Under the pieces are notes generated by a model that saw only the letters and a list, made by a program, of their open reading frames with translations, ran no database searches and was not told the DNA's origin. Positions 49,185 through 62,176 of a stretch of DNA of 64,000 nucleotides are shown piece after piece; the stretch's first letter is position 1; each line of letters starts with the position of its first letter. The DNA is taken from NCBI GenBank assembly GCA_012295275.1, contig CM022674.1:4402001-4466000 (forward strand), read 5' to 3'. Both the position numbers and the translations under genes were made by a program. The stretch is from Chrysomallon squamiferum (Eukaryota > Animalia > Mollusca).

Positions 49185-52116
49185 TCATTTCTCTTCTGTA
49201 GTTCTCACGTCACTATGAAGTAAAATAAAGTAAATAATATATATGCAGACATCCACATTCTTACACACACACACACACAGGCACACGCACATATATATAT
49301 ATATATATCATGGAAATAAATAAAAAATGAGCTGCCTATAACTAAAACATTTGGAAATTTTAATCAGGGATCACTGTTTACTGTTATACATGATTCTGAT
49401 GTAGAATAATACTCACACACTCCGGCTTTGACTGGGGAACCTGTATAAATTGAAAAATAGTGAGAGGTTAATTCTTCTGAATGATTTCAATCTTTTACAT
49501 TAGTATTATATTATCTCTTGCGTAGTTTGTATCATAATTCTCCTTTTGTAGTTGTAACAACGTTCTGAAGTAAAATAAAGTAAATAATATATATTCAAAC
49601 ACATAAAGATATATATATATATATATGTATGTATGTATGTATGTATGTATGTATGTCAGGTAAATGAATAAACGAAATTTTAATCAGGGATTATTGTTTA
49701 TTATTATAAATGATTGTTCTGCCCATCTATCTCTCTCCGTGTGTCACACATATATTTGTCTTTCTTTGTTCATATTAATCTGGACTTAAAATAATCTTTA
49801 CTTACGTGTCAGAGGAGATGGATCGGCCACGGCCACGGCCATGATTCCTGAAAAAAAAAAAGAAAAAAAGAAAATATTTTACTTAGTGCCACTTTTGCTG
49901 AATAGAAAAATTATCCAGGTACATTTTACCTGTTAGCTCAGTTTCACATTGTGTGTGAGGTACAGAGTTGATATCTCAGACAAAAAGTGGACCTAGTCGA
50001 TCATTCAGAGATATTTACTTTATACGATTATGACTCGTATACTGGAACTAACCGTTATTTTAGGCACACCTGTATCTATTTTACGCAGGATGAATTAATG
50101 TTAACACATAAAGATATAATAAATTATTATCGTATTTTACACAATAATACAATTTAATTTAACAGCTGTTTGTGAATATTGTTAGCGTTATTGTTACTGT
50201 TGTTATTATTACTATTATTATTATAATCATAATTATAATCATTATTATTGATTAATTTATTTTTCTACTTTAAATAAAACAACATTTGCTGTTACCAAAT
50301 TATATCAACTGCAATCTACATCATATCGTTAAATGGAGTTTATCATTGCTCTGTTAAGAAAGAAAACACACACATATATAGTCACACAAACACACTCAAA
50401 CACATACACGTACCTGAATCATTACTTTAGTGTGAACCAATAAAATATGGAACGATAATTTATTTAATAATATTTTAATTGTTTCCTAGAACGTTTACAA
50501 GGTTTACGGAGATCAACAACAGAATCGTGATATTAACAAATAGTGAAATGTCATTTTGTCCTCTTTTCACATTAAAACTCAGTAAACATGATAACTGATT
50601 TATGTGTTTGTTACTTCATAATAGGTGTTCGAAAAGAAAGACACACACTGATCTAACAGTGCTGCACTATTGGTGATGTCATTTATGTTAGGGATTAACA
50701 GAATGATATTCACAGGTGGAACGAATCACTGTAAGAAGAATAAAAACAATCAGGAGAATAATTCTGCAGTTCAAAAGTATGAATTCATTTTTTATCAGTC
50801 AATTTTACTAGTTAATGTACTAGGAAAACCTAAAATAAAAGTAACAAAAATAGATATATAGATAAATAGATGAACATGTATGTATATATGAATGTATATA
50901 TGTGCACGTGTGAATGTATATATCTATCTATCTATATATATATATATATATATATACATGTACACACACAGATATAAAGGTATATGTGTAACTTGCGCTA
51001 GGGAATAATTAACTATAACCGTTAAAATCTCAAATAAAATATAAAAGTAACAGGACTGCGGGTAAGTCAGATTGAGACATATACAGAGAGAGATAGAGAG
51101 AGAGAGAGAGAGGGAGAGAGAGAGAGAGAGAGAGAGAGAGAGAGAGAGAGAGAGAGAGAGAGAGAGAGAGAGAGAGAGAGAGAGAGAGAGAGAGAGAGAG
51201 AGAGAGAGATAGAGAGAGAGAGAAAGAGAGAGAGAGAGAGTAATTCTTGAAAATATGCATTTTAAAAGAAAGAGAAGAGGAGTTCAACTTATTAAAAGTA
51301 GTAGCTTTTTAATTTTCTATGATATTATACATTTTAAACGAAATTCTCGATAATATCTTCCTTTATTTTTTAATATCGAATGTATACCAAAAGAAAGGTG
51401 AAACATATTGAAATTAACCTAATTTATATTCATTCTAACGGAAAACCTTCGGTTTATCATTAACATAAATTCTTAATATATTTCCAGATTCCAGTACTCA
51501 TTTATTATACGATTTATTTTTACACGTTTTTAATGTTAGATCTCAGTTATTTTCTTAACATGAACATATTCCTTTGACTAGAATTACATTGCATCTGTTT
51601 TATTCTTTCGAATAATATTCAGTTATGAACTCAAACCGACGTAAAGCAAGTCAAACGTAAAAGAAATAGCAAATATTTGATTTAAAATATATTGGTATTG
51701 AACTCCATGTGACTAGTGGTGCAAAGAAAAAAAAAAAAAAAAAAAAGAAAAGTAATAATAATAATAATAATAACAGGAGTGGTAGTATATACAAATTACA
51801 TTTATATAATTAAATCTGTGTGATAAGAAAGATTTTACATTCAATATTATTCAGGTGAAATGTTTTATATCTTAAAATTCCGCAGATGTATTTGTACTGG
51901 AATAAATTAAGATTATTACAACTATATTTAATTACATACTAAAAAAAAAAGTATTTTATTTTGCACTAACATGGATTCATTCACCCGTCTCATATTAAAT
52001 GTTACTGAAGAGGAAAACGAAACTTACCGGTGATGTGAATGCAGTTTAACACTAAACAACCACGCTGACGTGAAAGCAATCAACAGCAGAATAATTTGCA
52101 GTTTCAACGCAAACAT
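49185..52116 (-). CDS. Micro-exon secreted peptide gene, copy 2 (65 aa; exons 52028-52116, 50714-50728, 49806-49847, 49417-49440, 49185-49212)
   Basis: 89+15+42+24+28 nt, all introns phase 2 and GT-AG with pyrimidine tracts: MFALKLQIILLLIAFTSA-WLFSVKLHSHHRDSFHLNHGRGRGRSISSDTFPSQSRSVDVRTTEEK*. AATAAA at 49157-49162. Confidence 0.8.
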
Positions 52117-52509
52117 AGTGAACAACGTAAGCTGGAAACCTGCCGGTATTCGTTAAATTTTAATGTATACCAAGCCCAGTTTTTATATATATATATATAT
52201 ATATACATGTAATATAATATAATATATATTAATGACAAACTACTAGGTTTGAGAAACGAATAGATTTAATGTTTAGCGTTTCGAATTAATTAGGAAAACA
52301 TTTAAATTCTAAGATTATTGAATATGGATCTTGAAAACGGAGAAACGAAAATGAATATGTTATTCTCTCTTTCATGTTTGTTAACGTATTTCCCTAAGAT
52401 TTTAAACTTTTTCAGTGTGTAGTAAAAAAACTTATACTTCATTTAACTGTATAATTCTTTTAGAATTTTACATGTAAAAAAAAATGATTATAAAGTGAAT
52501 ATAACTTAC

Positions 52510-61600: not shown

Positions 61601-62176
61601 TTTTTATGTTACGCAGTTATTTTCTTAACATGAATATATTCCTTTGACTAGAATTACATTGCATCTTTTTTTTTTATTCTTTCGAATAATGTTCAGTAAA
61701 ACAACTCAAACTGACGAAAAGCAAGTCAAACATAACCGAAATAGCATATATTTGATTTAAAATATATTGGTATTGAATTTCATGCGATTAGTGATAGAAA
61801 AAAAAAAAAAAATAAATAATAATAATAGTAATAATAACAGAAGTGGTAGTATAAAAAAATTACATTGATATAATTAAAGCTATATAATAAAAAAAAAAGG
61901 TTTTACATTCCATATTATTTAGAGGAAATGGTTTATATCTTAAAATTCCGTATATGTATTTGTATTGCAATAAATTAAGATTATTACAACTATATTTAAT
62001 TACATACTAAACAAAGTATCTTTTTATTTTGCACTAATATGGATTCATTCACCCGTTTCACATTAAATCGAGGAAATGGAAACTTACATGGGATTCTGTC
62101 TCTCTCCTCGTCTACGAGAACGCGATGACCAGAAAATAAGCAACACCAGAAGAATGTGCAGATTCAACGCAAACAT
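58612..62176 (-). CDS. Micro-exon secreted peptide gene, copy 3 (65 aa; exons 62088-62176, 61416-61427, 60399-60413, 59429-59458, 59040-59063, 58612-58639)
   Basis: 89+12+15+30+24+28 nt, all phase 2: MFALNLHILLVLLIFWSS-RSRRRGERQNPMDRDYDADHINSGRSISSETFPSQRRSVDVRTTEEK*. AATAAA at 58584-58589. Confidence 0.8.

Follow-up and report, generated by a model that had tools for sequence, protein, structure and literature searches.

We analyzed 64,000 nucleotides (nt) of the Chrysomallon squamiferum genome (contig CM022674.1, positions 4,402,001 to 4,466,000; hereafter, the window). This is AT-rich animal DNA (GC 22-32%) with numerous microsatellites, and it holds two tandem arrays that are parted by an assembly gap of 200 Ns (39236-39435). 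The left-hand array consists of calsyntenin fragments and CARD exons. The right-hand array, which is our subject, consists of three copies of one small gene, all on the minus strand. A sequence-only reading of the region had placed fast-diverging exons of this gene at 50714..62176. That extent needs widening, as it omits copy 1 (39749-40978), the last exons of copy 2 (49185-49847), and an exon of 30 or 42 nt (Table 1).

All of the exons are predictions from sequence, and our comparisons cover the three copies, with copy 1 cut by the gap. In the predicted layout, a non-coding exon 1 is followed by exon 2, which carries the ATG and whose coding part measures 89 nt in each copy, and then by micro-exons, a 28-nt terminal exon, and AATAAA. 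A TATA-like box lies 71 nt upstream of the exon-1 donor in every copy. The coding introns are all in phase 2, and the micro-exons (12, 15, 30 or 42, and 24 nt) are all phase 2-2. There are four micro-exons in copy 3 and three in copy 2, all in frame, and they account for 81 of the 198 coding nt (41%) in each of these copies. Copies 2 and 3 are predicted to encode secreted precursors of 65 amino acids, each with one stop codon, at the end, and with a 25-residue core and a 22-residue tail. No cysteine is encoded in copies 2 and 3 or in exon 2 of copy 1. The 18-codon hydrophobic leader, which we predict to be a signal peptide, has a mean hydropathy of 2.7-2.8 over residues 6-16 and ends in S-S-A, T-S-A, or W-S-S.

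Table 1. Predicted features of the three gene copies and the assembly gap (positions are those of the window)
Feature	Position	Strand	Remarks
Copy 3 TATA-like box	62584..62591	-	Equivalents: copy 1 40978, copy 2 52581
Copy 3 exon 1, predicted 5' untranslated region (UTR)	62520..62564	-	45/45 identical across the three copies; start tentative
Copy 3 exon 2	62088..62199	-	Acceptor 62199 or 62191; ATG 62176; phase-2 donor
Copy 3 predicted 18-residue signal peptide	62123-62176	-	Within exon 2
Copy 3 replaced 35-nt segment	62088-62122	-	Opens with Arg cluster (R-x-x-R)
Copy 3 exon 3, 12 nt	61416..61427	-	Phase 2-2
Copy 3 exon 4, 15 nt	60399..60413	-	Phase 2-2
Copy 3 exon 5, 30 nt	59429..59458	-	Carries conserved Gly-Arg/Ser site; absent from sequence-only reading
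Copy 3 exon 6x	59135..59177	-	Terminal-exon duplicate; possible alternative last exon with polyadenylation signals
Copy 3 exon 7, 24 nt	59040..59063	-	
Copy 3 terminal coding exon, 28 nt to stop	58612..58639	-	AATAAA 50 nt from exon start
Copy 2 exon 1	52510..52554	-	
Copy 2 exon 2	52028..52139	-	ATG 52116; Trp/His-rich post-signal segment; 30 letters identical in run X1
Copy 2 deletion breakpoint	51499..51500	-	About 220 nt lost, including exon 3; X1 contig with same edge
Copy 2 exon 4, 15 nt	50714..50728	-	Weak donor, score 0.4
Copy 2 exon 5, 42 nt	49806..49847	-	12 nt longer than in copy 3, via 6-nt Gly-Arg repeat
Copy 2 exon 6x	49522..49564	-	Polyadenylation signal absent in first 110 nt
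Copy 2 exon 7, 24 nt	49417..49440	-	
Copy 2 terminal coding exon, 28 nt	49185..49212	-	
Copy 1 exon 1	40907..40951	-	
Copy 1 exon 2	40424..40535	-	ATG 40512
Copy 1 exon 3, 12 nt	39749..39760	-	Remainder of copy 1 in assembly gap
Assembly gap, 200 N	39236..39435	.	Cuts copy 1; splits the micro-exon gene array from the calsyntenin/CARD array

The sequence-only reading took these exons to be real. The preserved frame, the lengths in multiples of three, and the equal 65-residue products agree with this, while splicing itself is a prediction. A scan for splice signals that was blind to divergence recovered six of the eight micro-exons (exon 4 of copy 2 and exon 7 of copy 3 were missed), and it also called one internal acceptor within exon 2 of each copy. 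As background, the scan gave 6 candidates in 35,408 bases, of which one had a length divisible by three, versus all five of the micro-exon lengths (12, 15, 24, 30, and 42).

Two further stretches near the predicted exons were considered. In intron 4 of copy 3, a 22-nt insert (60076-60097, minus strand) sits between an AG and a GT that adjoin in copy 2. We rejected it as an exon because its length is not a multiple of three and it has an in-frame stop; perhaps it is a decayed micro-exon. The part of exon 2 before the ATG (62177-62199, 52117-52139, and 40513-40535, minus strand) differs at 3-5 of 23 sites, which is above the intron level even though this part is predicted to be non-coding, and the differences cluster beside the second possible acceptor.

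With simple repeats masked, the introns are 86-97% identical between copies, in line with the close alignment of flanking introns that had been described. Between copies 2 and 3, the 35 nt after the predicted signal peptide differ at 24 sites (69%, against 6-14% in introns, where about 12% is typical); the leader differs at 10/54, exon 4 at 5/15, exon 7 at 1/24, and the terminal exon at 0/28. The non-coding segments of this pair differ at 24/266, 16/277, 56/465, 61/450, 107/751, 14/193, 12/85, 4/158, and 58/1031 sites. Between copies 1 and 3, the differences are 23/35 (post-signal), 7/54 (leader), and 6/12 (exon 3), with 12/286, 76/596, and 32/313 in introns. Thus the identities given in the sequence-only reading are correct (6/12 for the 12-nt exon, 10/15 for the 15-nt exon, 23/24 for the 24-nt exon, and 28/28 for the terminal exon), and so is its statement that all 11 post-signal codons of copy 3 are changed while the coding part of the exon remains 89 nt.

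A per-site comparison, which the sequence-only reading had proposed, shows that the core exons exceed the introns. For the post-signal 35 nt, 23/35 compares to 88/882 intron sites in copies 1 and 3 (Fisher p = 2e-14), and 24/35 compares to 72/742 in copies 2 and 3 (p = 1e-15). The excess is also seen in exon 3 (p = 0.002) and exon 4 (p = 0.05), and if the saturated segment is left out and these 12- and 15-nt exons are pooled, 11/27 sites differ versus 276/2110 (p = 4e-4). Among 1,417 non-exon windows of 12 columns from copies 1 and 3, 0.14% have at least six differences; at least five differences are found in 4.3% of 3,625 15-column windows from copies 2 and 3. The excess divergence is seen in several separate exons and stops sharply at their edges, and the variable stretch runs from where the leader ends as far as the exon 5 Gly-Arg site.

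For copies 1 and 2, exon 2 has 7 differences in 89 sites, and all of them are non-synonymous, as had been noted. The count stands, but by itself it lacks significance (p = 0.14), and the comparison of 7/89 to 37/1036 intron sites gives Fisher p = 0.052. If only non-synonymous sites are considered, 7/67 exceeds the rate of 0.036 (p = 0.01). The signal peptides of these copies differ from that of copy 3 at 7-8 of 18 residues, with changes at 10/41 non-synonymous sites versus an intron rate of 0.097 (p = 0.005).

A calsyntenin exon from the same window served as a control. It differs at 2-4 of 131 sites (1.5-3.1%) versus 5-19% in its introns for five of six pairs; in the sixth pair, the intron differs at 1/183 sites and the exon at 4/131. 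In the CARD exons, exon divergence is about the same as intron divergence, and the boundaries are rough. Within the micro-exon genes, non-coding divergence is patchy (2.5-14%; chi-square p = 2e-11, 8 of 9 segments), suggesting that the 3' block underwent conversion or recombination recently. This undermines one earlier argument, namely, that the conserved 3' exons contrast with the variable core. Exon 7 and the terminal exon together differ at 1/52 sites versus 4/158 (2.5%) in the intron between them (p = 1.0), so that the whole block appears to have been homogenized recently; because the intron in the block is equally similar, the near identity of the 3' exons shows no constraint.

Between exons 5 and 7 lies a duplicate of the terminal exon (exon 6x), which is 75-77% like it and was duplicated along with about 250 nt of intron. 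Exon 6x differs at 11/43 sites between copies 2 and 3 (p = 2e-4 compared to its upstream intron, and 0.03 compared to 14%), and in one frame, all eight of its changed codons alter the residue. Polyadenylation signals follow it in copy 3 only. Exon 6x is possibly an alternative last exon with fast evolution of its own, and copy 3 may in fact end with it.

The variable core ends within exon 5, at a Gly-Arg/Ser-Ile-Ser-Ser stretch in which the Gly and Arg codons both carry synonymous changes and the two residues are kept. A deletion of about 220 nt removed the 12-nt exon 3 from copy 2, yet exon 5 of this copy gained 12 nt via a 6-nt repeat. Because the loss is matched by the gain, copies 2 and 3 have cores of equal length (25 residues), and this single coincidence is suggestive of a constraint on core length. 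When the two cores are stacked, 3 of 25 residues are in common. The core of copy 2 is cationic, with an isoelectric point (pI) of 12.0, five His, 16% Arg, and a charge of +4.2 at pH 7; that of copy 3 has a pI of 10.5, 28% Arg, and a charge of +1.9 at pH 7. The tail is near neutral (4 acidic versus 3-4 basic residues), and copy 2 has no dibasic site, only Gly-Arg/Ser.

We also compared the genes to a public run (X1) of unrecorded type that matches 0.39 of words, covers the promoter and introns, and may depend on the same data as the assembly. X1 contigs match the window exactly over 30 letters at 52051-52080 and over another 30 at 52001-52030. The first of these matches has the copy 2 base at five of the seven differences between copies 1 and 2, and one contig omits exon 3, starting from the same edge as the copy 2 deletion. 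Single contigs have depths of about 42-92, and the depths of leader contigs sum to 1,639; depth is not copy number, and these values hint that the array has tens of copies. An ATG in exon 1 was rejected as a start codon: it lies 18 nt from the TATA-like box and is changed in 166 of 221 of X1 depth at 62572. In the deepest leader contig, another sequence stands above the exon-2 acceptor (window 62194-62226), in which about 13 nt are the reverse complement of copy 3 and give a stronger pyrimidine tract. This may be a micro-inversion between paralogue groups.

To ask how much selection the data would require, we simulated point substitution in codons with neutral divergence set at the intron level and with varying ratios of non-synonymous to synonymous rates (dN/dS). 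The probability of the differences seen in the 35-nt segment was at most 0.001 at dN/dS of up to 5, 0.015-0.03 at 10, and 0.25-0.39 at 20. The best values on the grid were 30 for the segment, 20 for exon 3, 5 for exon 4, and 2 for exon 5. Under these values, 6 synonymous steps were observed versus 3.6 expected (pooled p = 0.14). The sequence-only reading had proposed diversifying selection or focused mutation. Since point substitution reproduces the synonymous steps, focused mutation is not required, and the alignments support strong diversifying selection on the post-signal core, probably with dN/dS of about 10-30. This is likely the mark of an arms race, such as venom and defense peptides are known to show.

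The reading that we rank first is that this tandem family encodes cysteine-free precursors whose 25-residue core is under diversifying selection and acts on microbes at the body surface. Taken whole, we consider it moderately probable. Its coding and selection part, which is drawn from the sequence comparisons, is fairly probable, and a microbe-directed (host-defense-like) function is a tentative proposal by analogy. Under this reading, the signal peptide would be cleaved after residue 18, and cleavage, perhaps with amidation, at Gly-Arg would free the core from the 22-residue tail. Selection would favor new core residues while core length stays fixed, and patchy gene conversion or unequal crossing-over would homogenize blocks such as the 3' end.

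Several observations weigh against this reading. The exon-2 acceptors have poor scores (-0.9 to -2.7), below those of internal acceptors in the leader; the donor of exon 4 in copy 2 and the acceptor of exon 7 in copy 3 fail the splice scan; and a second reading frame is also open across exons 3-7. Three RNA runs gave four short partial contigs on 61100-62820, none of them spliced, which is uninformative either way. The leader shows no sign of purifying selection (a tree of the three copies places 10 changes in it, with no synonymous one among them), and its staying hydrophobic and open could arise by chance (p = 0.27), as could 89 nt free of indels (p = 0.4). X1 contigs leave 62074-62129, which spans the copy 3 segment, uncovered, and the core letters of copies 1 and 3 rest on the assembly. 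The comparison is limited to three copies, and the dN/dS needed (20-30 for the best fit) is extreme. As for function, a cut at the Arg cluster would leave copy 3 with an acidic core (pI 4.75), which fits a uniform antimicrobial role poorly, and the segments of copies 1 and 2 are not amphipathic helices (hydrophobic moments of 0.056 and 0.072, below 95% of shuffles).

A microbe-directed role is our best guess because of the composition of copy 2 and a layout like that of the myticalins, which are linear cationic antimicrobial peptides of Mytilus (PMC5577615, PMC12294457). As these papers describe them, myticalins also have a UTR-only exon 1, an ATG near the start of exon 2, a signal followed by a hypervariable cysteine-free core, a Gly/Arg end, and a better-kept tail, and they too occur in tandem clusters with exon-deleted variants. 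Cleavage and amidation at Gly-Arg are proposed here because of a rule stated for myticalins (PMC5577615). Myticalin cores are characterized by a pI above 11 and more than 10% Arg; the values here are 12.0 and 16% for copy 2 and 10.5 and 28% for copy 3. The described myticalins differ in having three exons, a phase-1 intron, and the entire core in exon 2, whereas we predict 6-7 exons here, along with a duplicated last exon, phase-2 introns, and a core spread over micro-exons. They also have a Lys-Arg site, an acidic tail of 35-75 amino acids, and a conserved MKG-type signal, in contrast to Gly-Arg/Ser and a near-neutral tail of 22 amino acids here, and we found no sequence match to them.

Alternatively, the gene model and the selection could be right and the peptides could be gamete, seminal, pheromone, or mucus/shell matrix products, which we find rather doubtful. 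The calsyntenin pieces do point to a gastropod: among six proteins compared, the nearest is from Haliotis, with 84% identity on one exon versus 62-73% for the others (73% for both Solemya and Elysia). In abalone, FITZAP/sp6 are described as small, fast-evolving, disordered sperm peptides that are furin-trimmed and have alternative exons (PMC6952181), and in copy 3 the core is acidic beyond an R-x-x-R cluster. FITZAP/sp6 have an N-terminal poly-Asp tract, a net charge of -6 to -16, and two exons according to that account; here, the cores are positively charged, the poly-Asp tract is absent, the exon structure is unlike, and there is no sequence match. Furthermore, the core of copy 2 is strongly cationic and His-rich.

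As for the divergence itself, the explanation that we rank second, and regard as unlikely, is that copy 3 acquired its 35-nt segment through a single replacement event or a small number of them (a switch of segments, micro-indels that offset each other, gene conversion by a paralogue outside our data, or mutation focused on exons) and not by about 20 selected point changes. The segment is no closer to copies 1 and 2 than shuffled sequences are: ungapped identities are 12/35 and 11/35 versus 8.4 in shuffles (p = 0.11 and 0.20), and gapped alignments give p = 0.2-0.5. Third positions differ at 6 of 11 codons, and the pair of copies 1 and 3 needs three synonymous steps (p = 0.03-0.06 for dN/dS of up to 10). 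There are precedents as well. In snake toxins, the process termed ASSET turns a short exon segment into unrelated sequence of the same length beside conserved introns (PMC2711939), and Ds is reported as raised in the mature exon of conotoxins (PMC3862624). As described, ASSET acts inside disulfide scaffolds, whereas the peptide here is linear and extreme point substitution fits as well. A donor for the segment, direct or inverted, was not found in the window or local flanks, and a compensating frameshift or a local inversion was rejected as the source, as neither scored above shuffles. Exons 3, 4, and 6x, which can still be recognized as homologous, show an excess too, the pooled synonymous steps fit the selection model, and intron differences are just slightly clustered (0.16 vs. 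0.10 and 0.14 vs. 0.12).

It is improbable that the core exons are simply old, with selection retaining ancient variants and gene conversion overwriting the introns. Homogenization of the array is real and patchy, and synonymous sites in the core have diverged too. However, this explanation predicts high intron divergence beside the exons. With increasing distance from the variable exons, introns of copies 1 and 3 differ at 0/18, 8/72, 10/87, 21/177, and 69/555 sites, with no rise toward the exons, and the values within 7-30 nt (8/72 and 18/96) exclude divergence of 25% (p = 0.003) and 30% (p = 0.009), respectively. An artifact, whether from errors in the consensus or from splice-like signals that arose by chance in non-coding DNA, is very improbable: although some splice sites are weak and the copy 3 segment and copy 1 letters come from the assembly, errors would not be expected to target exons, preserve the frame, and spare splice sites, sequence error is unlikely because the calsyntenin array is normal and X1 carries the copy 2 letters (and the exon-3 deletion), and the equal lengths of the predicted proteins and the micro-exon lengths in multiples of three also argue for genes.

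Returning to our preferred reading of a diversifying peptide family, we compared it to other known systems. The sequence-only reading had invoked conotoxins, most families of which have a cysteine framework in the mature peptide. The general likeness is that of a secreted gastropod multigene family whose core exons vary much more than its other parts (PMC3862624), but the parallel fails in detail. In copies 2 and 3, there are no cysteines and no pro-region before the core, and the core is split over micro-exons. Conotoxins are described as having signal, pro, and mature parts, in that order, on separate exons, whereas here the core begins in the signal exon and the conserved part is C-terminal. 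Conotoxins are venom-duct products of conoidean snails, whereas the host here is a likely gastropod by its calsyntenin pieces. Conotoxin signals are strongly conserved within a superfamily. The signal peptide changes here are all non-synonymous, with a pN of 0.17-0.25 relative to copy 3, compared to a conotoxin Dn of 0.02-0.09 (Table 5 of PMC3862624).

Schistosome micro-exon genes (MEGs) are also secreted, with very small symmetrical exons after the signal peptide, copy expansion, and high dN/dS; they are described as seemingly restricted to flatworms, with micro-exons forming most of the coding region (PMC4350168). The exons here are predicted, and they make up a smaller share of the coding region (41%). 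MEG products vary by exon skipping; in copy 2, exon 3 is missing from the genome itself and the frame is preserved. Piscidins share a UTR exon 1, a signal and mature start in exon 2, a tiny next exon, a C-terminal prodomain, and a similar size, but these are described as fish-specific amphipathic helices with a conserved signal (PMC7369796), and the segment of copies 1 and 2 has no helical moment.

Protein, structure, and metagenome searches, which are weak for a query of 29-30 residues, revealed no relative. Protein searches with exon 2 of copy 1 (padded with 12 non-coding codons, and with the copy 3 segment left out) returned 2 and 25 candidates, none with E of 10 or below. The sole match among 1.84 billion representatives was a repeat protein with a short shared motif, which we rejected. 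The best Atlas match was 0.80 (unnamed), the best match in PDB had E = 0.22, and Pfam gave just a sub-threshold match to CcmD. Metagenome scans gave 0 matches and then two loci that are alike over 22 nt only and are unrelated. No published description of the family was found by title or start of abstract.

The gene family is likely to be new. The pattern of exons outrunning introns is already known from conotoxins, snake toxins, mussel defense peptides, and schistosome micro-exon genes; the novelty lies in the family itself and in its build, which is cysteine-free, spreads the variable core across symmetric micro-exons, and is too small for routine annotation, together with a natural example of a lost 12-nt exon being balanced by 12 nt gained at another site. 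If there are tens of copies, as one run hints, then the array may offer candidate bioactive gastropod peptides, and enough intermediates to decide between selected point changes and segment replacement in such cores. More speculatively, and in our view doubtfully, this could be a MEG-like molluscan family of tens of copies, in which a fixed 25-residue secreted core is put together from symmetric micro-exons through gain, loss, and wholesale rewriting of these exons, giving a variable repertoire that controls symbiotic or pathogenic bacteria. Examples would be the exon loss offset by an equal-length repeat gain and the His/Trp-rich head swapped for an Arg-rich one. If true, micro-exon diversification would extend beyond flatworms, and gastropods would have a new class of host peptides without cysteine.

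The rest of the window holds other repeated sequences. Positions 1-39235 consist of tandem units of about 11 kb, each with several calsyntenin-1 exons on the plus strand; the subset of exons varies from unit to unit, and some are frameshifted. CARD-domain exons lie on the minus strand of the same region (Pfam CARD, E = 2.6e-05 at 9106-9276). A short Gly/Met-rich open stretch occurs three times on the plus strand (45870-45985, 47490-47605, and 57550-57660), and each is preceded by about 0.8 kb that may resemble a decayed retroelement 3' end, with no Pfam match above the cut-off. Downstream of copy 2 (45483-48925) is an internal triplication, with blocks of 0.4-1.6 kb that are 97% identical, which suggests recent unequal crossing-over or an assembly duplication. 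Finally, the promoters of copies 1 and 2 each have a 29-bp minisatellite about 0.7-0.9 kb upstream, at 41705-42269 (19.7 copies) and 53428-53909 (16.6 copies), respectively.

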